Source: Patescibacteria group bacterium (GTDB lineage Bacteria > Patescibacteriota > Minisyncoccia > Phycocordibacterales > SBAW01). From it: a stretch of DNA of 64,000 bases. A program made the translations under genes and the position numbers. This document shows positions 4,258 to 59,648 of the stretch, in pieces. The notes below the pieces were generated by a model, which worked only from the letters and a program-made list of their open reading frames with translations, made no database searches and was not told the DNA's origin. How positions within the stretch are numbered: the first letter of the stretch is position 1; every line of letters starts with the position of its first letter. The DNA is taken from the NCBI GenBank assembly GCA_028864875.1, contig JAGWLV010000001.1, positions 8,288-72,287 of the forward strand. The letters are read 5' to 3'.

Positions 4258-6353
4258 TCCTCGACCATTATAAGGCCCAATTTATTATTTGAAGAGGCGC
4301 CGGGCACAGACGACCAAATCTCCTCGGTAATAAAGGGCATAAAAGGGTGCAGCAGCTTGAGCGCGCCTTCGAGGATGTAATACAACGTTCCGCCGTACTC
4401 CGGTTTGCCCTTGCTCTCTTCTATAATCTGCGCGGCAAAGCGGTCCCAGAGGTAGTGGTAGAGCTTTTCGCCCGCGAGGTAGATGCGGTACGCCCGCAGA
4501 TCCGCAGTCACGTCGCGCGCGAGCGCATCGAACTCGTCCTTGAGGTCTTGTTTTATCCCGCCCGCGCGCTCTTGGGAGAGTACGTAGCGCGCGATGTTCC
4601 ACACCTTGTTGGAGAAGTTTTTGTACCCGCGCACGCGGTTTTCGTCGAGCTTGATGTCGTTGCCCGGCGCCGCGCCCATAATAAGCGACAGCCGTGTCGC
4701 ATCCGCGCCGTAGCGGTCTATCATATCGAGCGGGTCAATGATGTTGCCTACACTCTTGCTCATTTTGCGGCCCTTGTGGTCACGCACGAGCCCGTGGAGG
4801 TACACGTTTTTAAACGGCACCCGCCCCAGCAAAAACTGGCTCATCAATATCATGCGCGCCACCCAAAAAAAGAGAATATCGTAGCCCGTTTCAAGCAGCT
4901 CTGTAGGGTGGTAGATCTTAAGATCAGCCGTCTGCTCCGGCCACCCCAGGGTCGAGAAGGTCCACAGTCCGGAGGAAAACCACGTGTCGAGCGTATCCGG
5001 GTCCTGCTCCCACCCTGCGCCGGGGGAGTTGGCCTGCACTTTTAATTCTTCGCCGCGATACCACACGGGGATGCGGTGGCCGAACCAGATTTGGCGGCTG
5101 ATGCACCAGTCGCGCAAGTTTTCTATCCAGTGGAAGTAAATCTTTTCGAAGCGCTCCGGGGTGATAGTTGTGGCGCCACTCTGGACCGCCTCGCGCATCA
5201 AATCTTTAAGCGACTTGCCCCCGCGCTCTTTGATGGGTTTGTTGACGTCCACCCACCACTGGAGCTTGGGGAGGGGCTCGATGACGGCCCCTGTGCGCTC
5301 GGCGGTCGAGACGTTTTGTTTAATCTTTTCTTCTTTGATGAGCAAGCCCTGCTCGCGCAGCCACTCTACGACCGCCTCGCGCGCCTCGAGCACCTTTTTG
5401 CCCGCCATCGCGGGGCCCGCTGCGTCGGTCATCCGCGCGTACTCGTTGATGACTTGTACCAAAGGCAGGTTGTTTTTTTGTGCGATGTCCCAGTCTTGCT
5501 GGCTGTGCGCGGGGGTTACGCCGAGCGCCCCTGTACCAAAGGTCGGGTCGACCGACTCGTCGGCAACAATAGCGATGGTGAGCGTCGTGCCTGCAAACGG
5601 CACTTCGAATGTCTGCCCGATGTAGCCCATGTAGCGCGCGTCTTGGGGGTGGACGGCGACCGCGGTATCGCCAAGTTTGGTTTCGGGGCGCGTCGTTGCA
5701 ACCGCGATGGGGAAGTCGGGAGCATATTTAAACGTGTAGAGCGTTGTGTCGCGCTCTTCGTACACCGTTTCGTCGTCGCTGATGGTCGTCTGACCCTTCG
5801 GGTCCCAGTTGACAATGCGATTGCCCCGGTAGATGAGCCCCGCATTGTACATGCGCACAAACGCCTCCATGACCGCCTTGTAGCGCGGAGGATCCATCGT
5901 GTAGGCGTAGCGGCTCCAGTCGAGCGAGCTCCCCATCCGTTTTAATTGGTTGAGGATTATGGACTCGCTTTCTTTGACAAACACGTCGATGCGCTCAAGG
6001 AGTCCTTCGCGCCCCACATCTTTGCGGCTCAAGCCCTCTTTCTTTTCCATTTCTTTCTCAACTTTGCTCTGAGTTGCTATGGCCGCAGAGTCCGTGCCCG
6101 GGATCCACAACACCTTCTTCCCCTGCATGCGCTCAAAGCGCACGATGATGTCCTCGACGGCCAACATCGCCGCGTGCCCCATGTGGAGCGTGCCCGTGAC
6201 ATTGGGGGGCGGCAGGACTATGGAGAAGGGTTCACCGTCTTGTTTGGGGAGATTGTCAGGATTGAAGTAGCCGCTGTCCTCCCACTTCTTATATATAGGC
6301 CCTTCGACCGCGGAGGGGTCATAGGGCTTCAAAAACTTATCCGGCAGAGCCAT
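4242..6353 (-). CDS. valS: Valine--tRNA ligase (short form, 703 aa)
   Basis: Class I aaRS HMGHA (HIGH) and KMSKS motifs, DWCISRQIWFGHRIPVWY signature of ValRS; lacks long C-terminal coiled coil. Confidence 0.9.
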   Translation of the reverse strand: MALPDKFLKPYDPSAVEGPIYKKWEDSGYFNPDNLPKQDGEPFSIVLPPPNVTGTLHMGHAAMLAVEDIIVRFERMQGKKVLWIPGTDSAAIATQSKVEKEMEKKEGLSRKDVGREGLLERIDVFVKESESIILNQLKRMGSSLDWSRYAYTMDPPRYKAVMEAFVRMYNAGLIYRGNRIVNWDPKGQTTISDDETVYEERDTTLYTFKYAPDFPIAVATTRPETKLGDTAVAVHPQDARYMGYIGQTFEVPFAGTTLTIAIVADESVDPTFGTGALGVTPAHSQQDWDIAQKNNLPLVQVINEYARMTDAAGPAMAGKKVLEAREAVVEWLREQGLLIKEEKIKQNVSTAERTGAVIEPLPKLQWWVDVNKPIKERGGKSLKDLMREAVQSGATTITPERFEKIYFHWIENLRDWCISRQIWFGHRIPVWYRGEELKVQANSPGAGWEQDPDTLDTWFSSGLWTFSTLGWPEQTADLKIYHPTELLETGYDILFFWVARMILMSQFLLGRVPFKNVYLHGLVRDHKGRKMSKSVGNIIDPLDMIDRYGADATRLSLIMGAAPGNDIKLDENRVRGYKNFSNKVWNIARYVLSQERAGGIKQDLKDEFDALARDVTADLRAYRIYLAGEKLYHYLWDRFAAQIIEESKGKPEYGGTLYYILEGALKLLHPFMPFITEEIWSSVPGASSNNKLGLIMVEEWPVR

Positions 6354-13824: not shown

Positions 13825-14101
13825 GATAATTAATTAGTCTCTATTTATTAATTGGCCCCGATTAATATCTACACAACTGTACACCTGGGTGTTCGCTTTG
13901 CAACTACTACCGTGAAGGGATTTTTTGTGTTGTACACACAGCTCGCGAACTCAAACAAAATGGCTCAACCACAACTTTATTTTGTTGATATACAAAACTA
14001 CTGTTCACACATATTCCACACACAAACGGTGAGAGTATTGACTGGCAGCACCAAAACTGCTACAGTATCTCGCAACGAGGCAGACAATCCAGGAGCGCTC
14101 C

Positions 14102-14356
14102 ATGCACATTCTTTCGCCAAGAGGTTTGGCAGCGGAGCGGACACTCGTCTGCGTCGCTGCGGTTAGCTTGCTCGCTGCTTTCCAAGGGTCACTTCCCAAG
14201 GAAAAAGTCGAGCAACAGATCGAAACGTGGGAAGGGCAACTCGGTCCTGACAAAATCGCGCTCGCTCGCAGAGCTGCGCAGAGAATGCAGATCGACAAAG
14301 CCCAACCAGGCGACGTCTACAAGTACGTCGAAGAAGCACAACAGCCGCTCAATTAG
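14102..14356 (+). CDS. Hypothetical small protein (84 aa) in ftsA-ftsZ spacer
   Basis: ORF only; sits between ftsA and ftsZ on the opposite strand, followed by a strong terminator. Confidence 0.3.
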   Translation: MHILSPRGLAAERTLVCVAAVSLLAAFQGSLPKEKVEQQIETWEGQLGPDKIALARRAAQRMQIDKAQPGDVYKYVEEAQQPLN

Positions 14357-14365
14357 CGGCATCAA

Positions 14366-14398
14366 TAAAAAAGCCCGGCGGAAACGCCGGGCTTTTAC
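14366..14398. terminator. Rho-independent terminator downstream of ftsA
   Basis: aagcccggcg-gaaa-cgccgggctttt with flanking A-run, so it functions on both strands. Confidence 0.7.
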
Positions 14399-14405
14399 CT
14401 TGCTT

Positions 14406-18707: not shown

Positions 18708-19802
18708 TTATTTTTTTGCGCCTGAAAAGTTGAGCGCCATGCGCATGTCCTTGGGCTCAAAGAGCGCAATGGTAAAGGGGTAGCGCTTGCCCAACTCCAA
18801 GTTGCGGCGCAGCGCCTCCTCGGAGCCGAATTCGGAAACGTGCACCAAGCCCGCGATGCCCTCCTCGATGCTCGCCAGCGCGCCGTGCTTGTTAAACTTG
18901 ATGACCACGCCCTCGACCTTGTCGCCCTTTTGGTACTTCTGCGCGCTCGTAACCCACGGGTTGTCTTTGAGCTGCTTGACCGACAGCGAAATCTTGCCGT
19001 CCTTGATGTCAATTATTTTGACCTTGATGCGCTCGCCGACCTTAAAGAAGTGCCGCGGATCGTCGACGAGGCCCCAGTCGATTTCAGAAATATGCACGAG
19101 CCCTTCGAGACCCTCTTCGAGCTTCACAAAAACGCCGAAGTCGACCATGCCGGTGACCTCGCCCTCCATCGTGTCGCCCACGGCGTAGGTTGCAACAAGC
19201 TCGCGCTTTTCTTTGTCGTCCTGGCCCTTCTCGCTGAAAATAAGTTTGCCTTCTTTGGGTTCGGCACCGATGATGGTGACGCCGAGGCTCTGGCCAACAA
19301 GCTTGCGCAGGGCTTCAAGAATTTTGTCCTTGTCGCCGTCCTGGACGCGCGGGTAGTGCTCGGGCTTCAGCTGGCTTGCGGGGATAAAGCCCGCGAGCCC
19401 CTGCCACTCGACGATAAGCCCACCCTTGTTGGCCTCTTTGATTGGAAGTTGGAACTGCGTTTTGTTTTTGAGCGCCTCCTCCGCCTGGGCCCACATAATT
19501 GCTTGGCGCGCCTCCTTGAGCGAGAGCTCGATGTAACCGTCTTTGGTGCGCAGTGAGAGCACTTTGGCCGCCACCGTGTCGCCCAGGTTGGTGCGCTTAA
19601 TCACTTCGCGCGCGTTGAGGTACTCGCGGCCGAAGATGACCCCGGTGCCGAAGGGCGGGAGGTCGATGTAGAGCCGCGCGCGCTCGAGCGCAATAACCGG
19701 GCCCTCGACGATGTCACCGACTTTAGGCGGCGTCGCCGCGCGCTCCAAAAAGTCCTGCATCACAGATATAACTCCCTCTTGTTTGAGTTCAGCAGCTTCC
19801 AT
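18708..19802 (-). CDS. rpsA: 30S ribosomal protein S1 (4 S1 domains, 364 aa)
   Basis: Four tandem S1 RNA-binding domains (GxV, fGvFV, GLvHiSE motifs). Confidence 0.9.
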   Translation of the reverse strand: MEAAELKQEGVISVMQDFLERAATPPKVGDIVEGPVIALERARLYIDLPPFGTGVIFGREYLNAREVIKRTNLGDTVAAKVLSLRTKDGYIELSLKEARQAIMWAQAEEALKNKTQFQLPIKEANKGGLIVEWQGLAGFIPASQLKPEHYPRVQDGDKDKILEALRKLVGQSLGVTIIGAEPKEGKLIFSEKGQDDKEKRELVATYAVGDTMEGEVTGMVDFGVFVKLEEGLEGLVHISEIDWGLVDDPRHFFKVGERIKVKIIDIKDGKISLSVKQLKDNPWVTSAQKYQKGDKVEGVVIKFNKHGALASIEEGIAGLVHVSEFGSEEALRRNLELGKRYPFTIALFEPKDMRMALNFSGAKK

Positions 19803-20492: not shown

Positions 20493-20744
20493 CTAGGCCG
20501 GACAGTTCCGGTAGCTGCCGATCGTGGAGTTGATGGTACCGGTCACCGGGTCGCGGGTCACCTTGTTGACGGAGCCGAAGACGGCGCCGACAACGGCCGA
20601 GCCGAGCGACAGCGGACAGGTCAGGACGGAAGCGATGGTCGCTTGCTTGGGCTGCGCCTTCTTGGTGGCGTGCTTGGCGAAGGCCGGATTTCCGAGACTC
20701 AGGGCGACCGCCGCGGCGGTTGCGAGCAAAAGGACTTTTTTCAC
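20493..20744 (-). CDS. Small secreted protein (83 aa), hypothetical
   Basis: Perfect SD AAGGAGG 8 nt upstream of GTG start; signal peptide MKKVLLLATAAAVALSLGNPAFA; two Cys in mature part. Confidence 0.5.
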   Translation of the reverse strand: MKKVLLLATAAAVALSLGNPAFAKHATKKAQPKQATIASVLTCPLSLGSAVVGAVFGSVNKVTRDPVTGTINSTIGSYRNCPA

Positions 20745-21391
20745 GAGAAGAACCTCCTTGGTTTCAAGCGCCCTAAAGACGCGCCCGCACCTTACATGAA
20801 GGCGCTATGCAAGTCAAGACTCATAGTGAAAGCCCCCGACCTGCAACGCAGGCGGGGGCTCAGGTTGGCCGGAGTCGCACTCGCCGGCCGTGCTCTCAAC
20901 TGGAGCGTTTCCTCCCGCGACTAACTTGCGTGGTGGCCTAGGCGGCCATCGGCACTTGTTCGGTCTTTGGTTCGAAGTCGAAGCTCATTTGATTGCGCCT
21001 CATCACGAGCTCCTGGTAGTCCTCTTCGGACCGGATGCCCGCTTGGAGCACCGAGTCCGGTTCGATACCGTGGATGCCATACGCCTTGCCTTGCGGCACG
21101 GTGTGGCCCCGCAGACTTGTCGTACTCATCGAAGTGGATCCTCCTGCTATGGCCTTCCCGTATATGAAAAAGGCCGAAGAACTGCTCCATGCATCATCCC
21201 CAGGGTTATACACACCTGTAGGGCACGGACTGGAGATAGTAACCCACCCCTAGTGAGGTGTCAATGAAGCGGGGCGGGCAAAGAAAAAGGCCGGTAGTTT
21301 TTGTCCCTCCCGGCCTTCTTTACGTGCTATACGCTACACGTACGCAGTACTTGTACAAAACGCTTGTGACTCAACGCAAACGCTACATTAC

Positions 21392-21497
21392 GCGTGGATT
21401 TATGATGATACAAGGAGTGTATAAATAGTCAATGAAGACAAATGTGGATAACTCCCGACATCTGTGGATAACTTTGGCCGACGGGAAAAGTGGATTG
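21392..21497. promoter_or_regulatory. DnaA-box cluster (two perfect TGTGGATAA 9-mers plus two 1-2-mismatch boxes) next to an AT-rich stretch
   Basis: TGTGGATAA at 21443-21451 and 21463-21471; GTGGATTTA at 21394-21402; AGTGGATTG at 21489-21497; about 38% GC segment at 21340-21440. Confidence 0.55.
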
Positions 21498-21529
21498 AAA
21501 ATAAGGCGATTTTTTGCTAAAATGGTGAG

Positions 21530-22150
21530 GTGGTAATCAACTACGCAGGGGGGCAGTGCTTCAAGGTGAGCCAGGGGGACTTGACCCTGGCATTTAATCC
21601 GCCCGGCAAGGGGAGCAGCCTCCAGGGCTCCAAGTTCGGTGCCGACGTCGCGTTTGTGTCGCTCGACCACCCGGACTTCAACGGCACAGACAACGCGCGC
21701 TTCGGCGAGCGCGCACCTTTTTTGGTACAGGGCCCCGGCGAGTATGAAATCAAAGGCGTCTCCGTGCGCGGCTACGGCACGCCGACGACCTACGCCGGAG
21801 AAAAATCAATCAACACGGTGTACTCCGTGCAGCTTGAGGGGATGAAGCTCTGCTTCCTCGGCGCACTCGGGAGCCCGGAGCTCCCCGCGGCCGCGACCCA
21901 AGAACTCGACGACATCGATGTGCTCTTTGTGCCGGTCGGTAACAAAGACGTGCTCGACTATGCGCAGGCGTACAAGCTTGCGGTAAGCCTCGAGCCCAAG
22001 GCCGTCATCCCCATGCACTACGACACGGCGACGCTCAAGAGCTTCCTCAAAGAGGCGGGGGCCGAAGGCACAAAGCCGGTAGAAAAGCTCACTATCAAAA
22101 AGAAAGACCTCGAGGGCAAGGAGGCCGAAATAGTCGTGCTCCAATCCTAG
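21530..22150 (+). CDS. MBL-fold metallo-hydrolase
   Basis: Metallo-beta-lactamase-like fold with UlaG/YtnP-like layout; GTG start. Confidence 0.65.
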   Translation: MVINYAGGQCFKVSQGDLTLAFNPPGKGSSLQGSKFGADVAFVSLDHPDFNGTDNARFGERAPFLVQGPGEYEIKGVSVRGYGTPTTYAGEKSINTVYSVQLEGMKLCFLGALGSPELPAAATQELDDIDVLFVPVGNKDVLDYAQAYKLAVSLEPKAVIPMHYDTATLKSFLKEAGAEGTKPVEKLTIKKKDLEGKEAEIVVLQS

Positions 22151-22379
22151 TATGTACACGCGTTACATTACACACATGCACACGCGCACACCCCACCAGC
22201 GGCGCAACCACGCACTCCTGGTCGCGGGTGGACTCACGATACTTTTGGCGCTCGCGTGGCTCGCGACACTCCCGCTGCGCACGGCATCGGGCACCGCGCT
22301 CGACCAGGGACAGCAAGACGCGTCGGCGGCGGTCGGCAATGCCACACTCATCGTTCCGCAAGACTCTTCTCAATAACTC

Positions 22380-24926
22380 ATGGCCAAGGACGATAAAAAA
22401 TTGCCGCCCGCAAGCGGTGACATAGGCGATGACCCGTCTCGCCGAGGCGAAGCCGAGGCGGAACACACGGGCATAGTCCTGCGCAACATTTCGACCGAAA
22501 TGCGCGAGGCGTACCTCGACTACGCGATGTCGGTCATCACAAGCCGGGCCCTCCCCGATGTGCGCGACGGACTGAAACCCGTGCACCGCCGCATCCTCTA
22601 CACTATGCACCGGCTGGGGCTCACGCCGACGAGCCGCTTCCGCAAATCGGCGCTGGTCGTCGGTGACGTGCTCGGCAAGTACCACCCGCACGGAGACTCC
22701 GCGGTGTACGACGCGATGGTCAAGATGGCGCAAGAGTTCACCATGCGCTACCCGCTTGTGCTCGGCCAGGGCAACTTCGGTTCAATCGACGGCGACGCCG
22801 CCGCGGCCATGCGCTACACCGAGGCCAAGATGTCGCCGATGGCGATGGAGTTGCTGCGCGACTTGGAAAAAGAGACCGTCGACTGGCTCCCGAACTACGA
22901 CGGCACGCTCAAAGAGCCGAAGGTCCTCCCCGCAGCGGTGCCGAACCTCCTCTTAAACGGCACGCTCGGCATCGCGGTCGGTATGGCGACCAACATCCCG
23001 CCGCATAATCTTAAAGAACTCTCCGACGCTATCATCCATCTCATCGACAACCCGAGCGCGACGGTTGAAGACTTGATGCAGTTTGTGACGGGGCCGGACT
23101 TCCCGGTCGGTGCGGTGGCATTTAATAAAAAAGACCTCCTCCACGCATACTCAACCGGCCGCGGGCCTGTGTCGGTGCGCGGTGTTGCAGACATCATCGA
23201 GGGCAAAAAAGGCGACTTCCAAATCATCATCACCTCGATCCCGTACCGGGTTAATAAAGCCGACCTCATTGTGCGCATCGCCGACCTGGTCCACGAGAAA
23301 AAGCTCGAAGGCGTGCGCGGCTTGCGCGACGAGTCGACCACAGACGTCCGCATTGTCGTCGACCTCAAGCAGGGCGCCCACCCGCAAAAAGTGCTCAACT
23401 ACCTCTACAAGCACACGTCGCTCGAAGACCCGTTCCACTTCAACATGGTTGTGCTCGTTGACGGCGTGCCGCAGACGATGTCCCTGAAGGGCATTTTGCA
23501 GGAGTTTATCAAGCACCGCCGCACGGTGGTCGGGCGCCGCAGCCAGTTTGACCTCAAAAAGGCACAGGACCGCGAGCACATTTTGGCCGGCCTCAAAAAG
23601 GCGCTCGATCACATCGACGAAGTCATCAAGACTATCCGCGCGAGCAAGGATGTCGCCGAAGCGGAGGTCAACCTCATCAAAAAGTTTAAATTTACCGAGC
23701 TCCAAGCCAAGGCAATTTTGGAAATGCGGCTCAGCCGGCTCGCCAACCTCGAGCGCAAAAAAATAGAAGACGAGCTCTCCGAAGTGCAGGCGGCCATTGC
23801 CGAGTTGAGCGACTTGCTGAAGAGCGAAAAGAAGATGTTCGGCGTGGTCAAAAAAGAAACACAAGATATTTCGGCGAAGTTTGGCGATGAGCGCCGCACC
23901 AAGGTGCAGAAGGGCGCCGCGGGCATCATCTCCGAGGAAGACATGGTCGCCGATGCCGAGCAGGTGCTCACGCTGACCGCGGGCGGCTATATCAAGCGCA
24001 CCAACCCGGAGGAGTTCCGCCGCCAAAAGCGCGGGGGTGTCGGCGTCATAGACCTCAACACCAAAGAGGAGGACTTTGTCACCACATTCCTCACCACCTC
24101 GACCCACAGTGACCTGTTGTTCTTTACCAACGCGGGGAAGGCGTTCCAACTCAAGATGTATGAAATCCCGGAGGGCAAGCGCTCGACCAAGGGCAAGGCG
24201 CTGGTCAACTTTCTTTCAATCGGTACGGACGAAGCGGTGACGAGCATTTTGCCGATGCGCAAAGAATATAAAGGCGACCCGTCTCGCCGAGGCGAAGCCG
24301 AGGCGGGGCGCTACCTTGTATTGGTGACCAAAAAGGGGACTATAAAGAAGACCGATGCGGCGGCGTTCCGCGATGTGCGGCGCTCGGGCTTGATTGCGCA
24401 GAAGTTGCAAAAGGGCGACGAGTTGATTGCGGCGCTGTTGGTAGAAAAAGGCGACGATATCTTTTTGAGCTCCGCGAAGGGGCAGTCGATACGGTTTAAA
24501 GAGGCGGACGTGCGCGCGATGGGCCGCGCCGCCGGAGGCGTGCGCGGGATGAAGCTCGGCGCGGGCGACTCGGTCGTCGGGGCGGACGTGGTGCCCAAAG
24601 GCAAAGCGGGCGACAAGCTCGAAGTGCTCGTCGTATCGCGCAACGGCTACGGCAAGGCGACCCCGACGACCGACTACAAAACCCAGGGCCGCGGCGGCTC
24701 GGGCATCAAGACCATGAGTGTGACCGCGAAGACCGGCCCCTTGATCACCTCGCGCATCATCTCCCGCGGCGAGGGCGGGGAGGAGGAGATAGTGGTCGTG
24801 TCCAAAAAAGGCCAAATCATCCGCACGGGGCTCAACGAAGTCAAAACCCAGTCCCGCGCCACGCAGGGCGTGCGCATCATGCGCCTGCGCGACTCCGACT
24901 CCATCGCCTCCTTCGTTTGTTTGTAA
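22380..24926 (+). CDS. gyrA: DNA gyrase subunit A
   Basis: [31 protein letters not shown] signature with catalytic Tyr region, QRDR-like segment, C-terminal beta-pinwheel repeats. Confidence 0.95.
22441..22471 (+). repeat. 31-bp direct repeat copy 1 (gacccgtctcgccgaggcgaagccgaggcgg) inside gyrA
   Basis: Exact match to 24276-24306; encodes [10 protein letters not shown] in frame in the N-terminal tail. Confidence 0.8.
24276..24306 (+). repeat. 31-bp direct repeat copy 2 inside gyrA
   Basis: Exact match to 22441-22471; encodes [10 protein letters not shown] in frame in the C-terminal domain. Confidence 0.8.
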
Positions 24927-24933
24927 ACAAAAT

Positions 24934-25674
24934 ATGCCCGAGCCTTTTTCTCCTACACCAAGTCCTGCTCCCGAACCTCAACCTGGAATCAACAGGTCAA
25001 TATCTTCTGTGGATCAGCCCAGAGTGTATAGAGCCGTACGAGCTGTTGGAGTGGTTAAGCCGATGTTTAATCCAACAAACCAACAGTTTGGAAATAACTT
25101 TCAAGTTACTGGGACAGCTTTTTGGCTCTCAGAGTACCGAGTTTTGATAACTTGTGCCCACGTGGTCCAGGGATTATTGCTGGGAGACGCAGTTCAGACA
25201 GGACTCCTGATGATTGGTAACATGGGTGATTATAGTAGAGCGGCCATTGCTTCCCTCGATTTAGCCCATGATTTAGCCGTTTTAAAAATTATTGATAAAC
25301 CCGATTCTTTTATAGATAGTGAAGCAAAGACAGGGGTTTCTATTTTGGAGCGCTACCCTCAAGTTGGTGAGGCTGTAGCATACGCCGGCTTTCCGCTCGG
25401 TTCTCAACTACTTAACTCAGCTCATGCCCCCACATTTTCTGATGGTGTAGTAGCAGTACAGTTGAGAGAGTCTCCTCTTAGAAAAGAAATTCAAGTTACT
25501 GGTGCTGTCGTGGGAGGCTATAGCGGAGCCCCCGTGGTTCTTAGAGAACCAGACTCGAGTCGCCTGATTGGAGTGTTGGCGCGCGGCCCAAGTTCTTCAG
25601 AGACACAAGGCAATATATTTATGGCCATTTCCTGGGAGCACGTTAAAGCCATAGCGGAGTTAGCGACCTCCTAG
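24934..25674 (+). CDS. Trypsin-like (S1 family) serine protease, low-GC gene
   Basis: Catalytic triad context TCAHVV (His), DLAVLK (Asp), GYSGAPV (Ser); GC about 48% versus about 65% in adjacent gyrA. Confidence 0.75.
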   Translation: MPEPFSPTPSPAPEPQPGINRSISSVDQPRVYRAVRAVGVVKPMFNPTNQQFGNNFQVTGTAFWLSEYRVLITCAHVVQGLLLGDAVQTGLLMIGNMGDYSRAAIASLDLAHDLAVLKIIDKPDSFIDSEAKTGVSILERYPQVGEAVAYAGFPLGSQLLNSAHAPTFSDGVVAVQLRESPLRKEIQVTGAVVGGYSGAPVVLREPDSSRLIGVLARGPSSSETQGNIFMAISWEHVKAIAELATS

Positions 25675-27418: not shown

Positions 27419-27630
27419 TCTCGTCGCGACCACTGCCGAGCCCTGGCCGTCCGAAAGCTTGTGCGAGTGCAAAAGGGTGGAGGCCCACACGCTGTAGGCC
27501 ACGACCGTCGCGGCCGCTATCGCGCATACCGCCGGGACGCCTATTTTTTCTACAAATCTCACTCTCATACAACCTATGATGCACAAGAGAAGTGATTCTT
27601 ACATGAATCAGTGCGCTGTATAATAAAGGC

Positions 27631-28185
27631 ATGGAAAGTTTCTTTTTGGTCCCCGGGGAGGCGCTGCGGAGCGCGGGTCTTGCCGAAGGCATGAAGGTGG
27701 CCGATTTGGGCTGCGGCGGGGGCTTTTTTGCGCGCGCGGCCGCGCGCGCGGTAGCGCCGGCGGAGGTGTGGGCTGTGGACCCCAACCGCGAAATACTCTC
27801 GCGGGTCAAGAACCTCGCCTTGGGCGAGGGGCTCCACAATGTCGAGGTGCTCTCCGGCACGCCGCAGGCGAGCAATCTCCCGGCAGGGCGGTTCGACGTT
27901 GTTATTGTGGCCAATACCCTCTTTGCCGAAGCTCCGGAGGAGCGCGGCGCGGTTGCCGGAGAGGCACACCGTTTGCTCCGCCGTGGCGGCAAAGTGGTCG
28001 TCATAGACTGGAGCGGTAGCCACGGCGGGCTCGGGCCCCACCCAAACCACATTGTGGAGGAAAAGGTGGCCCGCGCGCTCTTTGAGCGCGCGGGCTTCGG
28101 CTGGGAGCGCGCGCTCCCCGCGGGCTCCTACCACTGGGGTGCGCTATTTAAGAAAGGCGGGCATAGCATTAAGAAGGTACAATAG
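27631..28185 (+). CDS. Class I SAM-dependent methyltransferase
   Basis: Motif I VADLGCGGGFFA, Rossmann-fold MTase layout (Methyltransf_11/25-like). Confidence 0.8.
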   Translation: MESFFLVPGEALRSAGLAEGMKVADLGCGGGFFARAAARAVAPAEVWAVDPNREILSRVKNLALGEGLHNVEVLSGTPQASNLPAGRFDVVIVANTLFAEAPEERGAVAGEAHRLLRRGGKVVVIDWSGSHGGLGPHPNHIVEEKVARALFERAGFGWERALPAGSYHWGALFKKGGHSIKKVQ

Positions 28186-29928: not shown

Positions 29929-30273
29929 ATGTTTGGACCAGGAGACACATTCAGATCGGTCGTCACAGCCCTCGTCGGGCTCATCGACATGATTATCCCG
30001 GTCTTGACCGCGGCGGCCATCGTATTCTTTTTCTACGGACTCGCGGTCAAGTACATGAAGGCACCCACAAACAAAGAAAATTGGAACATGGTGCTCTGGA
30101 GCCTCATCGCGCTCTTCATCCTCTTCTCCATTTGGGGGATACTGCGCGTGCTGCAAAACACGTTCCTCGGCGGGGTGGGGAGCGGGGTCAACTGGGGCGG
30201 GCCGGTGCACACCTTTAGTACCCCAAGCGGCAATGCCAACAGCGGCCTGTGCCTGTTTGGCAATTGCTACTGA
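29929..30273 (+). CDS. VirB2/TrbC-like pilin-type small membrane protein, paralog 2
   Basis: Same two-helix architecture; start abuts previous stop; C-terminal Cys pair (CLFGNC). Confidence 0.55.
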   Translation: MFGPGDTFRSVVTALVGLIDMIIPVLTAAAIVFFFYGLAVKYMKAPTNKENWNMVLWSLIALFILFSIWGILRVLQNTFLGGVGSGVNWGGPVHTFSTPSGNANSGLCLFGNCY

Positions 30274-30326
30274 TATCCACACAGGGGCCTTCGCGGGGCA
30301 TATTTAGAAGTACAATTACTATATAT

Positions 30327-30689
30327 ATGAAAAAGCTTTCCATACTCTCGGCCATACTTTTGGCTGCGCCGGCGGTTGCCTTTGCCCAAACGCCGACTGA
30401 CCTGCGGTCGCTCATCGCCTTTGTGGGCAATATTCTTAATGCACTCATTCCGCTTTTGATCGCATTGACCCTTGTTGTTTTTTTCTACGGCCTCTACAAA
30501 TATGCGCTAAATCCTGGTGGTGGTGGCGGTAAAGAGGGGGGCGGCAACACCAAGCTCCTTTGGGGTGGGCTCGTCGCGCTCTTCATTATGGTGTCGGTGT
30601 GGGGTATCATCCGCATCGCGCAGAACACCTTCGGGGTCAACAACTCCGCTCCCATCACCATCCCGCAAGTCCCGCAGGCAGTGCACTAA
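30327..30689 (+). CDS. VirB2/TrbC-like pilin-type small membrane protein, paralog 3
   Basis: Signal peptide MKKLSILSAILLAAPAVAFA, helix, Gly-rich loop, second helix. Confidence 0.6.
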   Translation: MKKLSILSAILLAAPAVAFAQTPTDLRSLIAFVGNILNALIPLLIALTLVVFFYGLYKYALNPGGGGGKEGGGNTKLLWGGLVALFIMVSVWGIIRIAQNTFGVNNSAPITIPQVPQAVH

Positions 30690-43362: not shown

Positions 43363-44409
43363 ATGTCGCAGTTTTACAACAACGCGATTTTTTGGGTCGA
43401 GGTGGACAAAATCCGCCCCAACCCGTTCCAACCGCGCCGCGAGTTCGACGAGCACAAGCTTCAGGACCTTGCGCGCTCCATCCGCCAGTACGGCGTCATT
43501 CAGCCCCTGACCGTGACCCGCAAAGAGCTCGAGCGCGACGACGGCGGGCTCTCCACCGAGTATGAACTTATAGCAGGGGAGCGCCGGCTGCGCGCGGCGC
43601 GCCTGGTGGGCCTGCGCGAAGTGCCGGTCTTAATCCGCGGTGGGCACGACGACGACCAGACCAAGCTTGAGTTGGCAATAATCGAAAACCTCCAGCGTGA
43701 GGACCTCAACCCCATCGACCGCGCCAAAGCATTCGACAAGTTGGTCAAAGAGTTCGGCTTCAAACATGCCGAGGTCGCACAGAAGGTGGGCAAGAGCCGC
43801 GAGTACGTGAGCAACACACTGCGCCTCTTGGCGCTGCCCGAGGAGATGCAAAACGCACTCTCTGACGGCAAAATAAGCGAGGGTCACACGCGGCCACTCC
43901 TGATGCTCGCCGAGCGCCCCGACGAGCAGCAAACACTCTTCCACGAAATCATGCTCAAAAAGGTAACAGTGCGCGATGCCGAGGCCATTGCGCGGCGCAT
44001 CGCCTACGACCGCGTGCGCAAAAAAGAGTACCTGTATGCGCCGGAAATTTTGGACATGGAGCGGCAATTGAGCGACGCGCTCCACACACGCGTCATGATC
44101 GAGCCGAAGGAAAACGGCGGCAAGCTCTCAATCGACTTCGGCAACGAGGACGACCTCCGCACTATCTTTACACAACTTGCTTCGGGCTTTGCGGGCGCTC
44201 CGGAGCAGCACCCTGCACATGTGGAGCGGGAGATTCCTGGACAAAATGGTCTGGCCTCGCCGGCGCGCCCGCATGAGCGAGCAGCGCCGGACGAGGAGAA
44301 CCGAGGACCTTTTGGAAAGGAATCTCCCGTGGAACCAATCGATGACCGCACGAAAGAAGAAAAAGACCGCGACGAAAACACCTTCGACCCCTCCAACTTT
44401 TCTATCTAG
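43363..44409 (+). CDS. parB: ParB/Spo0J-family partition protein with long disordered C-terminal tail (no adjacent parA)
   Basis: ParB N-domain [14 protein letters not shown]...[14 protein letters not shown] region, 348 aa. Confidence 0.85.
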
Positions 44410-48267: not shown

Positions 48268-48759
48268 TTATCCGCGGAAGGGGCGGTGTTCGCGACGATA
48301 GGCGGCAAGCGGTTGGAATGCCACACGGCTGTGATACGCGCAGTACGGCAGGCTCTTTGCAGCTTCGCCGCCGCAGAAAAAGAAGTCGCCCGAGCCTGGG
48401 TCGCCGACCGGCCAGCGGCACGTGTCTTCGGCCAGTTGCAGCAAAGTCTTGCGCTGCTCGACCGGAATCCCGAGCATTTCCGGTTCCGGCTCGTAGCCAT
48501 CGGGTTCGAGAGCGAGCGCGGTGTTGGCGCGCATCGACGGCCGCGAAACACGGAACATGCCCCCCGAACTGCGCGCTTTGCGCGGGCGCGGGGATGAACT
48601 CGACGGTGCCTTTGCCCGCCCGGAAAGCCCCATCCGGTGCACTTTGCCCATGACGCCATTGCGGGTTACGCCGCCTAGTTCGGCGGCGATTTGACTGGCG
48701 GAGAGCCCGTCAGCCCACAGCTTTGCACACAATGCGCTACGCTCTTCGGTCCATGACAT
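48268..48759 (-). CDS. gcrA: GcrA-family cell-cycle regulator homolog (164 aa)
   Basis: GGGAGG SD 5 nt upstream of ATG; N-terminal MSWTEERSALCAKLWADGLSASQIAAELGGVTRNGVMGKVHRMGL and C-terminal CRWPVGDP...DFFFCG...PYCAYHSRVAFQP match both conserved GcrA blocks. Confidence 0.8.
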   Translation of the reverse strand: MSWTEERSALCAKLWADGLSASQIAAELGGVTRNGVMGKVHRMGLSGRAKAPSSSSPRPRKARSSGGMFRVSRPSMRANTALALEPDGYEPEPEMLGIPVEQRKTLLQLAEDTCRWPVGDPGSGDFFFCGGEAAKSLPYCAYHSRVAFQPLAAYRREHRPFRG

Positions 48760-48819: not shown

Positions 48820-48839
48820 TGTGGATACCAAGTGGATAG
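48820..48839. promoter_or_regulatory. Two DnaA-box-like 9-mers (TGTGGATAC, AGTGGATAG) in the gcrA-like promoter region
   Basis: 8/9 and 7/9 matches to TGTGGATAA, 60-80 bp upstream of gcrA-like ATG; adjacent AACCTGTT direct repeat. Confidence 0.45.
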
Positions 48840-48899: not shown

Positions 48900-49181
48900 C
48901 TAGCGCACAGCACTCTTGAGACGCGCAAGCAGCGGGTCGTCCTTGGGTATGACGGGCATACGCTCCGAAGGAGCAGACACTATGCGGCGGGGGCGGAATT
49001 GATATGTCCCGTCAGGAGCTGCATCGGGACGGTACACGATACCTGCAACTTTGTTCCTATTAAGTCCTGCGCCCCGGATACGGCGGTTTACTTCTTCTGC
49101 GGTTTTGGAGTAGGACAACTCTTCAACCAATTGCAAAACAAGCCTTCGGACCTTCGGGGGATGGGCTTTTGGGATGGGCAT
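48900..49181 (-). CDS. Hypothetical protein (93 aa)
   Basis: AGGAGG SD 4 nt upstream of ATG (MPIPKAHPPK...); terminator downstream at 48873-48898. Confidence 0.5.
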   Translation of the reverse strand: MPIPKAHPPKVRRLVLQLVEELSYSKTAEEVNRRIRGAGLNRNKVAGIVYRPDAAPDGTYQFRPRRIVSAPSERMPVIPKDDPLLARLKSAVR

Positions 49182-53599: not shown

Positions 53600-54781
53600 A
53601 TGACAGAAACGTCGGCGACAGATGGCCCCAGGAGCATCACGCTCCCCGGCGGCGATGTTGTGTCGGTGTCAGATGATCCGGAGGAGTGGTGGTCGAAGCA
53701 CAACGCCACCGGTTTTGTGGATCCGCACTATATCGCTCCGGATCCAAAGAATCCGCGCCGTCGACTCAACCCCGCGCGGCAAAAGGAGCTCGAAGAAAGC
53801 ATCAAAGCCCGTGGCGTCAGGCAAGCACTCATTCTTACTCCGCGGCACTGCGCGCCGTGGGCCCCGGTCGAACCGCAGTATAAAAAGTGCTTCTTTCTTG
53901 CGGTAGGCGGACATCGCCGTCGCGCCGGATCCATCGCCACCCAAATCGGAGCCGTTCCGGTTATGGTGAAGATCTACCCATCCGAAAAAGAACACCGGAT
54001 GGATGTCTCGCTACTCAACAAGGGGCAGGATGATCTCACGCCGCTTGAAGAGGGTGAGGAGATGATGAGTCTTCAGAGCCTCGGTTGGAAAGTCGAAGAA
54101 CTGTGTGAAGCCTTCGGTTATGCTACGCCGCAGCTCTACGACCGGATGCATCTCACCAAACTCGATCCTAGACTCCAGAAATGGCTGGATCCGGAGCTCC
54201 CGCGTCGCCAACGGATTCCGATTACCTTGGGCGGAACTTTGGGCGGAATACCGGTGCCGACTCTCGAAGAGCTCGTCGAAGTCTATGACGGGCTCAACGA
54301 CACGGTGCGTATTCTTAAGACCGATGAGTACGTCCCTGCCGAAAAACTCGAGGACTTGGATCAAAAGGGACGCCGCTTCGCACTCCAACGGTTGCTGTTT
54401 GCCGTAATACAACGGCGGAACTTGCCATCTCCCCGCGCCATTGAGTTCATCCGCGATCGTAAACTTAAACTCGCGGGAGGCAAGTCGGCAGGCGGAAGGC
54501 CGACTCAGCGATACAGACCCAACCGCCGTAAAGATGTTCTCGATACGGTGATCAAGGAGATCAGCAGTTCGCTCGTCGTAGATTGGCCGGAAGCGGAATG
54601 GCAGCGGATCTTCGGCCTTGCTCCCCGCGAGGAGGTCGAGGACTATATGAAGAAAGTGCAGAATGCTCAAAAGACCCTGACTATGTGGGAAAGCATTCTC
54701 GGTCGCATCCGCGATTCCAAGAAAGCCACTCGACCTGAAGTGCTGGAGATACTTCAGCGCAAAAAGGCCGTTGGCCAATGA
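53600..54781 (+). CDS. ParB/Srx-like nuclease-domain protein (second ParB-like gene), lower GC
   Basis: GGAGG SD; ParB N-domain hallmarks DPKNPRRRLNP...LAVGGHRRRAGSIATQ...VPV; own terminator; GC about 58%. Confidence 0.65.
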   Translation: MTETSATDGPRSITLPGGDVVSVSDDPEEWWSKHNATGFVDPHYIAPDPKNPRRRLNPARQKELEESIKARGVRQALILTPRHCAPWAPVEPQYKKCFFLAVGGHRRRAGSIATQIGAVPVMVKIYPSEKEHRMDVSLLNKGQDDLTPLEEGEEMMSLQSLGWKVEELCEAFGYATPQLYDRMHLTKLDPRLQKWLDPELPRRQRIPITLGGTLGGIPVPTLEELVEVYDGLNDTVRILKTDEYVPAEKLEDLDQKGRRFALQRLLFAVIQRRNLPSPRAIEFIRDRKLKLAGGKSAGGRPTQRYRPNRRKDVLDTVIKEISSSLVVDWPEAEWQRIFGLAPREEVEDYMKKVQNAQKTLTMWESILGRIRDSKKATRPEVLEILQRKKAVGQ

Positions 54782-55903: not shown

Positions 55904-55978
<75 letters not shown>

Positions 55979-56009
55979 ACACATGACAAGTCAGGTGACT
56001 ATGACGCGT

Positions 56010-56095
56010 CTATATTTTTCAACGTATTTTTAGCGTTCGGTTCGAGACCATGACGCGTCATGTGTCTCAGTCTCGAACCGCAAAAGAAAAATTAC
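56010..56095. repeat. Palindromic att-like site (ggttcgagac-catgacgcgtcatg-tgtctc..cgaacc) with duplicated TGACGCGTC motif
   Basis: Imperfect inverted repeat around a central CATGACGCGTCATG palindrome, adjacent to the serine recombinase gene 3' end. Confidence 0.45.
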
Positions 56096-56118
56096 CCGGC
56101 GAGGTGATTTTTCTTTGG

Positions 56119-57411
56119 CTACTCCATCGTCACTTTCTTGTCTTTCAGGAATAACTTGCTCTGCAAGCATCCAAGCAATTCCCGTTTCTCTACCAGGGTT
56201 CCTTCCCTGAGCAGGTACTTCGTGTAATTCCGAACGTCCACGTCTATCTCGACTTTGTCCTGCTTGTGCCCGAGTACTCCTGACTGAAATTTGTTGAACC
56301 GCCGTATTTCTTCTTCGATCCGTGTCCGTACTCCCAACTCATCCAAATTTACCGTATCCATCAATCCAATTAGTTCATCAATCAGGCTCGGCTCGTTGAT
56401 CGGTGGATTCTTGCAATCGATATTCCGAGCCTTTGTGCAGAAGTAATATACATGGCGATTCACACCGCCACTCTTGAGCTTCTTGAATTTTTCGTCAGCT
56501 GATATACCCGAGCCGCAGTAGCCGCATCGCACGAGCTTGGTGAAGGCGAACTCCTTGCTCTCGGTTTTGGGTATGAAATTTTCGTTGAGCGTCATCTGTA
56601 CCTTCTCATACAGCTGTTTGTCGATGATTGGCGTATGCTTGCCGGTGTACCATTGACCACCCCCGACCGGGTATTCAAATTCACCCGAGTAGAAGGGGTT
56701 CCGCAGAATGACGTAGACATTCGCGAGCACGAGCGGTTTTCCTCCCGTTGTTTTGAAGTCAATCTCTCGGAGCCATCGGTATACTTTCCGTCCGCTCCAC
56801 TGTTCGTGCGCTACCTTCTCGAACATCTGTTTGATCACAGGCGCGCGCTTTGGGTCGATCCGGCACTGACATTTCTTGTCGACATGCTTTTCATTGAGAT
56901 ACCCAGTCGGGGCAGGGCCGGGCCTCCAACCCATCTCGCATCGTGTTCTCAGCCCGCGCTTCACGTTTACCGCCTTGTTGTCGTTTTCGAGCTTCGCCTG
57001 CGAACCCAGAATCATTAGTAGGAATTTTTCGTTCGGATTGTTTGTGAATCTCTGTCCGTATGTACGGATTTCATGGAGTAACTTTTGGTCCATCAGGTCC
57101 ACGACTGACCCCAGGTCACCGGCATTGCGACTCAGGCGATCTGGTGCCCACGTGAGTATTGCGTTGAACTTCTTCGACCGGATATCCTCCAACATTTGGT
57201 TGTAGACCGGACGTTGGCCGACCTCTTTAGATGAGTGGGCCTCACGCTTAATCTCGACAATATGCAAACACTCTCGCTCGGCTAGCGCCTGCATTTCTTT
57301 CACCTGGCTCTCGATTGATAATGCTTGCTTATCTTCCGCCTCAGTACTTTTGCGTGCATAGAGGCAGTACCGTAAGGCCTCCTGTGGTTGTGTTTTTTCC
57401 ATACACCACAA
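56119..57411 (-). CDS. Large serine recombinase (phage-integrase type)
   Basis: Resolvase catalytic domain YARKSTEAE...SIESQ, recombinase domain, C-terminal zinc ribbon CGYCG...YYFC; 430 aa; AT-rich codon usage. Confidence 0.9.
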   Translation of the reverse strand: MWCMEKTQPQEALRYCLYARKSTEAEDKQALSIESQVKEMQALAERECLHIVEIKREAHSSKEVGQRPVYNQMLEDIRSKKFNAILTWAPDRLSRNAGDLGSVVDLMDQKLLHEIRTYGQRFTNNPNEKFLLMILGSQAKLENDNKAVNVKRGLRTRCEMGWRPGPAPTGYLNEKHVDKKCQCRIDPKRAPVIKQMFEKVAHEQWSGRKVYRWLREIDFKTTGGKPLVLANVYVILRNPFYSGEFEYPVGGGQWYTGKHTPIIDKQLYEKVQMTLNENFIPKTESKEFAFTKLVRCGYCGSGISADEKFKKLKSGGVNRHVYYFCTKARNIDCKNPPINEPSLIDELIGLMDTVNLDELGVRTRIEEEIRRFNKFQSGVLGHKQDKVEIDVDVRNYTKYLLREGTLVEKRELLGCLQSKLFLKDKKVTME

Positions 57412-57927
57412 GGAATGACGCCACCCTCCTGAGGAGTCCAGGACTCCTCAGGAGGTGGAAGTAGATAACATTTGACTCCTCAAGGAAGCCCTATATACTT
57501 GGGGTATGAGTCTACCGATCCCTAAAGAGCCGACCGACGTCAAAGATTGGATCCACCGGATTGAAGGAATGGGAGGTAAGTCTGGTGAGATCAATTGGGA
57601 TTCTCTGAACGTTTGGTACGGGAACAAATTGCCACAATACTTGTGGAATGAATGGAAGGACTCACTCAAACCCTCAGGAGGGTGAGCTCCGCCTCAACTC
57701 GCGCTTGCTTAAGGCGCTTCACAAATATTGCTCGTTCATTGGTATGAATGGACTTCTTCATACCTATAAGCCTGTATTCCGTATTGGGATATTCCAAAGT
57801 GGAATATCCCATGCTATGCTTGAAATGGCCCCGTTAGGGCACTGTTGGTAACTCCGCTTCGCAAGGCCTTGAAACTAAGTTAGGAAACACAAAGTCAGTC
57901 TTTATTAGCTCATATTTAGTAAGTGCT

Positions 57928-58479
57928 ATGGACACAGAAGTAAAACCCAAGAAGAAGTTTTATAAGCGCTGGTGGTTCTGGGTCGGTGCCGTTCTTGTGC
58001 TGTTCGTGATTATCGGCATGAGCGGCAATTCAACACCTACCACGAGCGTTCCGGCTCCTAACGAAAGCGCTGGTACCGCCTCAGCGCAAACTCAAGCCGC
58101 GCCTGAGCAAAAGTCGGTGCCTGCCCCAACAGAGTCCCAATCAGCTCCTGCCCCCTCGCAGCCGATCAGTAAGCCTGCACCGGCTCCTGCCGCCATGCAG
58201 ACCCTGCTCGATATCTCCGGCAGCGGCAGCAAGACGACTGAGTCGTTCACGGCTGCCGGCGCGTGGAATCTCATCTGGAGCTACGACTGCTCTAACTTCG
58301 GCAGCAAAGGCAACTTCCAGGTATTTATCTACGACGGCAACGGTAACATGTCGTTCGACAACTCAGGTGTGAACCAACTTGGCGCTTCCGGATCAGATAC
58401 CGACTACTATCACGTGGGTGGCACCTACTACCTCGAGGTCAACTCCGAGTGTAGCTGGCATGTCACCGTGAAAGGCTAG
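57928..58479 (+). CDS. Membrane-anchored secreted protein with Pro/Ala-rich linker and C-terminal beta domain, hypothetical
   Basis: N-terminal Lys-rich tail and TM; architecture like prophage-encoded surface or exclusion proteins (DUF4352-like, tentative). Confidence 0.45.
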   Translation: MDTEVKPKKKFYKRWWFWVGAVLVLFVIIGMSGNSTPTTSVPAPNESAGTASAQTQAAPEQKSVPAPTESQSAPAPSQPISKPAPAPAAMQTLLDISGSGSKTTESFTAAGAWNLIWSYDCSNFGSKGNFQVFIYDGNGNMSFDNSGVNQLGASGSDTDYYHVGGTYYLEVNSECSWHVTVKG

Positions 58480-58533
58480 TGTAGACAACTCGCTTCGCAA
58501 TACCTCCGTTCTAAGCTGGAATGGAGGTGTTGC

Positions 58534-58754: not shown

Positions 58755-59648
58755 CTACAACGACTTCGAGTACGCGTCCCAGTCAATGTCTCCGTTCGGC
58801 TTTTTGAAGTACTCAAGGATTGCGGCCCGTTGCGCTCGCTCTTTGATCTCCGCCTCTTCGCGCTCCTTGCGTTCCTGCTCTTGTTGGTACAGGGCAATGT
58901 CATCTCTAATAGCCTGTAGACGCATGTAGTTATTGTTGCGTAGTCCTTCGGGCAACATATCAATTACCTGGCGCACGTCATCAGGCGAAAGCCGGTCCAA
59001 CTTCGGCCCCGCAGCGTCACGCTTCTCTTTGATGCGCTGGGCATAATCGAGCCAGAGCTTTTGGCTTCGTAGATTGCCACCTCGAGCTGAGGTGTAGATC
59101 TCGCCAAGTACGTCACCGGTCTTGAAGATGATCCAGTCTTCTCGGAGCGCGGCGACACGTTGCCCGAAGTCTGCACGTTGTGCCCAGGCATCGAGCAATC
59201 GTAGGCTCGGAACGCCGTACATCTTGCAGAACTGCTCGCGCGTTTGAACGCCGCGCCAGGAGCGCTCTTCGGGCGTGAGGGCGCTCCAAAGCACGAACTG
59301 CTCATACGCTTCGGCATCAGAGAGTATCTCTGGCACCGGGTGCATAGAGGCGGGTTCCGACCGTTCAGGAGCTTTCTTGTAAGGAGCTACGTTGTGCTCA
59401 AGGTAGTACCTGATAAGACGGGAGTCGCCCTCGCTGATCTTCTTGAGGAACGCCGCCGATACACGGTCGTCGGTCGTATCTTTGCCGGAGCGCCGGGCCG
59501 CGTCCGCCTTCTTGTGGAAGTCGAGGTCGCTCTTGTAGTGGCGATCGTAGAACATGCGGGACACACCCGCTCGCTTGCAGGCGACCGTAATGGTGTGTCC
59601 TTCGGCGAGGGCACTGAGAAGTACCGATACCTGATCATGCTTGTGCAT
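58755..59648 (-). CDS. HTH-domain protein resembling phage terminase small subunit / DNA-binding regulator
   Basis: N-terminal HTH ALAEGHTITVACKRAGVSRMFYDRHYKSD, second HTH-like region, Glu/Arg-rich C-terminal coiled coil; 14-nt overlap with MTase gene. Confidence 0.45.
   Translation of the reverse strand: MHKHDQVSVLLSALAEGHTITVACKRAGVSRMFYDRHYKSDLDFHKKADAARRSGKDTTDDRVSAAFLKKISEGDSRLIRYYLEHNVAPYKKAPERSEPASMHPVPEILSDAEAYEQFVLWSALTPEERSWRGVQTREQFCKMYGVPSLRLLDAWAQRADFGQRVAALREDWIIFKTGDVLGEIYTSARGGNLRSQKLWLDYAQRIKEKRDAAGPKLDRLSPDDVRQVIDMLPEGLRNNNYMRLQAIRDDIALYQQEQERKEREEAEIKERAQRAAILEYFKKPNGDIDWDAYSKSL

Follow-up and report, generated by a model that had tools for sequence, protein, structure and literature searches.

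A predicted lineage-specific DnaA-type operator in a divergent promoter region near gyrA of an Adlerbacteria-like genome

Several described systems contain groups of DnaA boxes. The nrdAB promoter of Escherichia coli has two strong boxes and one ATP-DnaA box, and is activated or repressed by DnaA depending on the level of DnaA-ATP; in Caulobacter, DnaA activates gcrA (PMC8203912). Origins of replication with a basal unwinding system (BUS) contain boxes next to DnaA-trios and the region of unwinding (PMC8287927, PMC7561715). Strong and weak boxes are also clustered outside origins, as in datA and DARS of E. coli or in the DnaA-box clusters (DBCs) of B. subtilis. We have analyzed a site which shares features with each of these systems. 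It is found in a stretch of 64,000 nt from a Patescibacteria group bacterium (contig JAGWLV010000001.1, positions 8,288 to 72,287), which we call the window and number from its first nucleotide. The site is a pair of perfect DnaA boxes in a spacer of about 785 bp, just upstream of the genes for an MBL-fold hydrolase and for gyrase A (gyrA). The host genome appears to be Adlerbacteria-like, from the candidate phyla radiation (CPR); to our knowledge, no experiments have addressed how replication and transcription are controlled in the CPR. On balance, we lean towards considering this site as a predicted DnaA-type operator, specific to its lineage, in a divergent promoter region.

The two boxes, TGTGGATAA, are on the plus strand at 21443–21451 and 21463–21471, exactly where a preliminary description of this DNA had placed them. 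They have the same orientation, start 20 bp apart and are separated by a gap of 11 bp. No other exact copies are found on either strand of the 64 kb. In 1000 block shuffles the average is 0.25 copies, and 33 shuffles contain two or more copies anywhere; we estimate the chance of two exact copies within 30 bp as about 7e-5. The box pair is real and non-random, and it is the top-scoring and densest DnaA-box cluster in the window. Both boxes belong to a direct repeat of 17 nt, GACAnnTGTGGATAACT (21437–21473, plus strand), whose two copies, GACAaaTGTGGATAACT and GACAtcTGTGGATAACT, are identical in 15 of 17 positions and have a period of 20 bp.

Such an arrangement could also arise from a recent tandem duplication of 20 bp, without any function, which includes one DnaA-like 9-mer. 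The 20-bp units are directly adjacent and share 15 of their 20 positions, and the site is conserved in no relative. Nevertheless, we consider this explanation highly improbable. All five differences between the units are outside the 9-mer, for which we calculate a chance of about 0.03 if the pair comes from a duplication. Four more GTGGAT cores in the same orientation and two TGTGTATAA-type sites are found nearby, and the distance from the pair to a −10 hexamer matches the usage of the clade.

A consensus scan finds two back-to-back promoters at the site. The leftward promoter is sigma-70-like (TTGACT-16-TATCAT, 21405–21432, minus strand). In the rightward promoter (TTGAAA-17-TGcTAAAAT, 21495–21523, plus strand), only 6 nt separate the −10 from the GTG of the MBL gene, and the MBL-gyrA mRNA would therefore be leaderless. 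The strong boxes are found upstream of both −35 hexamers, at 11–39 bp for the minus-strand promoter and at 24–52 bp for the plus-strand one. Weak boxes are found on the plus-strand −35 and at the minus-strand start point, so that boxes are present within or next to core elements, as expected from a DnaA-regulated promoter. The proximal box reads TTATCCACA on the minus strand (21451–21443), and TATCAT follows 32 nt downstream with the same orientation; the second box is two helical turns farther upstream of this leftward promoter.

The same distance is found in related genomes. Our comparison set contains 160 related loci (L001–L160), which cover gyrA/MBL ± 6 kb and add up to 1.54 Mb of Parcubacteria DNA. 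They include 56 exact copies of TTATNCACA, the classical DnaA consensus. For 14 of these copies, the same strand has a −10-like hexamer at a downstream distance of 29–32 nt, most often 31 nt. At this distance, the opposite orientation, used as a control, gives 3/56, and each of four control motifs gives 0–2 sites. The 14 sites correspond to about ten independent promoter contexts, and in many cases an ATG is found 6–9 nt past the hexamer: They belong to leaderless genes. Examples are L021:8495, L024:8485, L044:3619, L008:4226, L157:4284 (minus strand), and L026:1443; the window contains two further examples, at 27577–27636 and 30273–30330. The proximal box at our site is 32 nt from TATCAT, and therefore has the geometry of a promoter element of this clade.

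The arrangement is conserved at an orthologous gene, coding for a SAM-methyltransferase, which is found just downstream of gyrA in relatives (L021, L024, L044). Its promoter boxes account for a 3.7-fold enrichment of boxes in the first 100 bp past the gyrA stop codon of the relatives. In the window, the methyltransferase gene is found at 27631 and is preceded by a box at 27577, with the structure TGATGCACA-N33-TATAAT-N6-ATG. The preliminary description had mentioned a strongly DnaA-regulated promoter as one of its two options. The geometry common to relatives supports this option, but it is found at the divergent minus-strand promoter, not primarily at the promoter of MBL-gyrA.

The MBL-gyrA promoter is conserved in its own way. 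In 93 of 149 relatives, a −10-like hexamer ends at a distance of 4–10 nt (mode 6) from the MBL start codon, in 79 cases with a TGn extension (TGnTAtAAT); the leaderless structure of the operon is therefore conserved. The start codon is GTG in the window and ATG in 148 relatives. Relatives also have a TTGACA at the place equivalent to the leftward promoter, which would serve the S1 side where the spacer is short.

The boxes of the window and the promoter boxes of the relatives have common flanks, aGTTATsCACAg, which read TGTGGATAACT on the other strand. This extended box is abundant in phages. Among IMG/VR viral contigs (L161–L487), tandem TGTGGATAACT boxes with gaps of 8, 9, or 10 nt (19–21 bp spacing) are found in at least 120 contigs for each gap, and in 14 loci with a 14-nt gap (25 bp). 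Evidently, in-phase tandem boxes are a favoured arrangement. The set with a 9-nt gap (20 bp) includes at least 51 unrelated sequence families, with 28–67% GC and almost always a single orientation. Just two boxes are present in 16 of the 51 families, and many arrays have 3–14 boxes. Our pair has the identical TGTGGATAACT, the same head-to-tail spacing and a single orientation. On the other hand, many phage arrays have more boxes, and they have no similarity to our site outside the boxes. These phage arrays may be origins, operators, or DnaA sponges. Their range of base composition implies many hosts, which argues for a universally conserved binder; we infer that DnaA, a host protein of this kind, is the simplest one.

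Some features would fit a different DNA-binding protein, whose site resembles a DnaA box and which recognizes the GACAnnTGTGGATAACT repeat or aGTTATsCACAg; the "−48" element of Parcubacteria would then be its site. The repeat reaches 17 nt, well beyond the 9-mer, many promoter-proximal sites in the relatives are TTATGCACA with conserved flanks, and dedicated activators typically bind at a constant distance from the −10. The DnaA of this organism is outside the window. Nevertheless, we find this explanation unlikely: The 9-mer is the exact highest-affinity DnaA box, every variant that we have seen fits TTATNCACA, the extended box is the one used in the in-phase phage arrays of many hosts, and no candidate regulator gene is adjacent to the site.

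Other sites surround the pair. Two of them, CGTGGATTT (21393–21401) and AGTGGATTG (21489–21497), both on the plus strand, had been described as near-perfect boxes, the first of them one position off, at 21394–21402. The sites are present, but they are weak boxes with three mismatches each, and the common part is only the GTGGAT core. The first coincides with the start point predicted for the minus-strand promoter, and the second overlaps the −35 TTGAAA of the MBL-gyrA promoter. Two other plus-strand GTGGAT cores, CGTGGATGC (21069–21077) and AGTGGATCC (21133–21141), also have the orientation of the pair. In fact, 6 of the 19 plus-strand GTGGAT cores in the window fall in 21070–21495, in one orientation, and none of 1000 shuffles has four or more cores in 110 bp. 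The weak GTGGAT sites are not noise.

There are also two sites of another type. The first, TTATACACA (21206–21214, plus strand), is an exact match to TTATNCACA with an orientation opposite to that of the pair. The second, AGTGTATAA (21416–21424, plus strand), has one mismatch to the relaxed box TGTGNATAA and belongs to a 12-nt inverted repeat whose partner is at 21206–21217. When the relaxed box TTWTNCACA is used with at most one mismatch, six sites are found in the 309 bp from 21163 to 21471, and the background is 1.2 sites per kb. This cluster includes three of the five exact TTWTNCACA matches in the window, among them the inverted TTATACACA. With this definition the site has the type of cluster expected in an oriC, with at least three boxes of at most one mismatch and a mean spacing below 100 bp. 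With the strict TTATCCACA and at most one mismatch, only three sites are found (21206, 21443, 21463), with a mean spacing of about 130 bp.

A DnaA-type operator with these elements could work as follows. DnaA, as a transcription factor, would bind the two high-affinity boxes cooperatively, on the same face of the helix, and would act on the leftward TTGACT/TATCAT promoter from about −48 and −68. The proximal box would occupy the position of DnaA-box promoters in Parcubacteria, 29–32 nt upstream of the −10. This leftward promoter, ancestrally probably a promoter of the S1 (rpsA) side, would now give no more than a short transcript, terminated after about 115 nt. At a higher DnaA-ATP level, the weak GTGGAT sites would also be bound, both over the MBL-gyrA −35 and at the leftward start point. 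Such spreading of DnaA would tie the supply of gyrase A to the status of the initiator, as at nrdAB.

The E. coli nrdAB promoter is similar in having two high-affinity boxes upstream of the core promoter, a weaker site which is nearer or overlaps it, and a target in DNA metabolism. By analogy, activation would be expected at low DnaA-ATP and occlusion at high DnaA-ATP. On the other hand, the boxes at our site would serve two back-to-back promoters, the operon is that of gyrase A and is leaderless, the host is a CPR bacterium, and the site is known from sequence alone. We infer DnaA as the binding protein, as well as the direction and size of the regulation.

The strong and weak boxes in the same orientation extend over about 430 bp of non-coding DNA. 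They could buffer free DnaA, as a reservoir or titration site similar to datA, DARS, or the DBCs of B. subtilis, which are also non-origin intergenic clusters of strong and weak boxes. The site is lineage-specific, as titration sites tend to be. Nevertheless, we regard this role as very unlikely. Only two boxes are of high affinity, fewer than in the known clusters, and exact promoter geometry, fixed at our site and not in these clusters, is needless for titration. No accessory-protein sites were identified, no search for IHF and Fis sites being made.

The preliminary description presented the region as a candidate oriC. In such an origin, displaced from dnaA, DnaA would bind the array of boxes with the same orientation and open the AT-rich stretch at 21328–21440. 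We consider this quite unlikely, although several features agree with it. The region has the densest DnaA-box cluster in the 64 kb, as judged from the relaxed boxes, the exact matches, and the six GTGGAT cores, and its roughly 785 bp are probably non-coding, although the genome is compact. As in an oriC with a BUS, boxes with the same orientation are found in an intergenic region, next to a replication/topology gene. The AT-rich stretch is on the expected side of the boxes, where the BUS model places the trios and the unwinding (PMC8287927, PMC7561715). The parB gene is 22 kb away. Genes also diverge from the site, since 15 of 19 are on the minus strand on its left and 23 of 35 on the plus strand on its right. 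We have not retained this divergence at 21.4 kb (about 70% of the genes co-oriented with replication) as evidence: It is not significant given the presence of operon runs. As for the BUS, the orientation expected at our site is drawn partly from that of incC in B. subtilis.

The details of the boxes agree only in part with a BUS. Four NAN triplets (AAT GAA GAC AAA) abut the proximal box on the expected side and fit the permissive (.A.){3,} rule (PMC8287927), which is a low-information match. They match the DnaA-trio consensus 3′-GAT-5′ at the invariant middle A only. Only two strong boxes of the strict type are present, 11 bp apart and not ≤3 bp apart, and the spacer is not GC-rich as in the known origins. 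Moreover, the proximal box fits the promoter geometry of the clade. Such a geometry is also compatible with an origin, since real origins often contain DnaA-regulated promoters.

The AT-rich stretch is not exceptional either. It has 37–40% GC, in a genome with 58% GC, and contains the minus-strand promoter and two copies of ACGCTACA. A low GC content had been reported for 21340–21440 (about 38%), as a possible DNA unwinding element; it is real, with 40% at 21340–21439 and a 100-bp minimum of 37%. However, 17 other segments of the window also reach 40% GC or less. No 13-mer-type repeats are found in the stretch, which is occupied by a promoter and abutted by a terminator-like hairpin.

GC skew was the check proposed for the origin, and it gives a negative answer: The cumulative G−C curve of the 64-kb window has no minimum at 21.4 kb. 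The skew is +0.024 in the 20 kb on the left and −0.009 in the 20 kb on the right, which is the wrong sign for an origin. Four-fold degenerate sites were used in order to control for coding strand. At these sites, plus-strand genes are richer in G than minus-strand genes to the left as well as to the right of 21.4 kb, with a skew difference of 0.078 (permutation p 0.038), and the contrast for an origin switch is 0.002 (p 0.48). This fits a single replication direction across the window. We consider the skew as moderate evidence against an origin, not decisive, because the skew is weak and covers 64 kb only.

As previously stated, the window lacks dnaA. Neither dnaA nor dnaN is found, in the window or in the 160 related loci, by Pfam scans of about 50 open reading frames (ORFs) and by tblastn with the DnaA of B. 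subtilis as the query. This lack of linkage speaks against an origin. It does not disqualify one, because in the Peribacteria, which also belong to the CPR, gene content is said not to reveal the origin (PMC4736985). A full-length ParB, with N-terminal, helix-turn-helix, and dimerization domains, is coded at 43363–44409 (plus strand), without an adjacent ParA. A second protein with a weak ParB_N match is coded at 53600–54781 (plus strand). No canonical parS, with up to three mismatches, is present in the window.

The comparison with relatives also argues against an origin. Most of the 160 loci have the order pth – S1 | MBL – gyrA, even with protein identities down to 30–40%, and about 100 relatives share the S1 | MBL-gyrA synteny. 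The S1-MBL spacer of the relatives has 95–5814 bp, with a median of 686 bp. MBL is preceded by at least 200 nt of sequence in 143 relatives; 18 of them contain a box with at most one mismatch, compared with 21 matches expected, and no cluster is found. GTGGAT is not enriched in the spacers of 96 relatives. The only enriched motifs in the spacers are the divergent promoter elements TTGACA and TATGCTA, without any origin-like repeat. An origin at this place would need a recent relocation into a conserved spacer. The site itself is absent from about 100–140 relatives which keep the flanking genes.

Other features of this spacer in relatives deserve mention. It holds lineage-specific small genes, and many contigs from metagenomes and metagenome-assembled genomes (MAGs) end inside it or at it (L004, L008, L013, L034, L044, L073, L076, L106, L108, and others). 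It looks like a hotspot of strain-level variation, which breaks assemblies. A separate group of boxes is found in L008, an Adlerbacteria-like locus: Four exact TTATCCACA and one TTGTCCACA are present within 5 kb downstream of gyrA (4226, 5118, 5185, 8885, 9042). Three of these boxes adjoin AAGGACnGTCCTT hairpins, and an intergenic region at about 4950–5240 is AT-rich and flanked by tRNAs. This group could be the origin of the L008 genome or a repeated element.

Several points weigh against a DnaA-type operator. The site is unique to the lineage of the window, so conservation cannot confirm its function. The dnaA gene of this organism, which codes for the DNA-binding domain of DnaA, is outside the window. 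Both the leftward promoter and its transcript are predicted: No start codon follows the −10, the transcript belongs to no Rfam family, and its predicted fold gives weak support. Finally, an operator needs neither the GTGGAT cores found 300–370 bp away (21069, 21133) nor the inverted box at 21206; because of these unexplained elements, the origin and the reservoir are kept alive as alternatives.

Box-like sequences are also found at another gene of the window. A homologue of GcrA (PF07750, 168 bits) is coded at 48268–48759 (minus strand) of this CPR genome. Two tandem box-like 9-mers, TGTGGATAC and AGTGGATAG (48820–48839), overlap its predicted −35; they have one and two mismatches, with 12 nt to the −10. 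A second small ORF (48901–49181, minus strand) has a GcrA-like helix-turn-helix and an AGGAGG Shine–Dalgarno sequence, with no Pfam match. The GcrA homologue gene may be of mobile or phage origin. In the collection of papers that we searched, none names GcrA and Patescibacteria together. The comparison with the gcrA and ftsZ promoters of Caulobacter suggests a DnaA regulon which includes cell-cycle genes, as the 9-mers lie over the promoter. However, these 9-mers are imperfect, have a different spacing, and are not part of the site upstream of MBL-gyrA. The intergenic region between ftsA and ftsZ (13825–14405) is unusually long (580 bp) and AT-rich, and has five DnaA-box-like sites with two mismatches each; these may simply reflect composition.

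A wider proposal, which we make only tentatively, is that the DnaA of Parcubacteria, or a protein specific for DnaA boxes, could be a general promoter-proximal transcription factor. Its binding site would have a constant place, about 48 nt before the start of transcription, and the genes it drives would often be leaderless. In the lineage of the window, its regulon could include the S1-side/MBL-gyrA region, as the strongest operator with two boxes, the methyltransferase gene, and the GcrA homologue. If this is true, a circuit leading from DnaA to GcrA and gyrase would exist outside the Alphaproteobacteria.

The rest of the spacer is probably non-coding. As the preliminary description stated, there is no convincing ORF in its 785 bp. 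The only ORF with a Shine–Dalgarno sequence (GGAGGA), at 20938–21130 on the minus strand, would code for 64 amino acids. We consider it doubtful as a gene: A search finds no homologue, and its GC content by codon position is 0.77/0.61/0.41, compared with about 0.6/0.4/0.75 in the real genes of the window. Mobile-element origin of the spacer was also discarded, since blastn finds no match in plasmid and phage collections.

A stem-loop had been noted at 21280–21318. We find a GC-rich hairpin at 21284–21320 (minus strand), with arms at 21284–21297 and 21307–21320. It is followed by TTTTTCTTT on the minus strand, and so looks like an intrinsic terminator; the consensus scanner misses it, and its long loop is the probable reason. 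The hairpin is about 80 nt past the leftward promoter, which gives a candidate transcript of about 115 nt (21284–21398, minus strand), possibly a small RNA or an orphaned leader. Its predicted fold has a z-score of −1.9, and an Rfam search of 20700–21600 finds nothing below E=1. The spacer contains another promoter-like site (TTGACA-17-TACTAT, 21236–21264, minus strand) and a perfect 8-bp GC-rich hairpin, AGCCCCCG / CGGGGGCT (20831–20860).

The genes around the site are, in order, pth (plus strand), S1 or rpsA (18708–19802, minus strand), two genes for small secreted proteins (minus strand), the 785-bp region, the MBL-fold hydrolase (21530–22150, plus strand), an ORF of 74 amino acids (22152–22376, plus strand), and gyrA (22380–24926, plus strand), which is thus 0.9 kb downstream of the site, as described before. 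The last three genes (21530–24926) probably form one operon, since they are tightly spaced and their order is conserved across Parcubacteria. The closest relatives are Candidatus Adlerbacteria and MAGs of Paceibacterota, with a gyrA protein identity of at most 79%; the nearest ones in GTDB/JGI are only 75–79% identical. Directly after gyrA is a gene for a trypsin-like peptidase (24934–25674), with a third-position GC of 0.38, compared with about 0.75 in its neighbours. It contains TGTGGATCA, 82 nt past the gyrA stop codon, and is possibly a recent acquisition at the place where the relatives have the methyltransferase promoter. A gene for a large serine recombinase (56119–57411, minus strand) is found immediately after a tRNA-Gln, in a low-GC stretch (48–50%); the region at 55905–58500 is probably an integrated mobile element. 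A DNA methyltransferase is coded nearby (59635–60498).

In summary, a perfect box pair and an AT-rich stretch near gyrA are insufficient to call an origin in CPR genomes. A box count in the style of Ori-Finder would flag this site, but the skew and the comparative data argue against an origin. If the site is a DnaA operator, it offers a promoter architecture which can be tested, where a constant distance separates the box from the −10 of a leaderless gene, and it suggests a link between the status of the initiator and the supply of gyrase. In any case, the fixed-distance box architecture found throughout the clade is more interesting than this single site.

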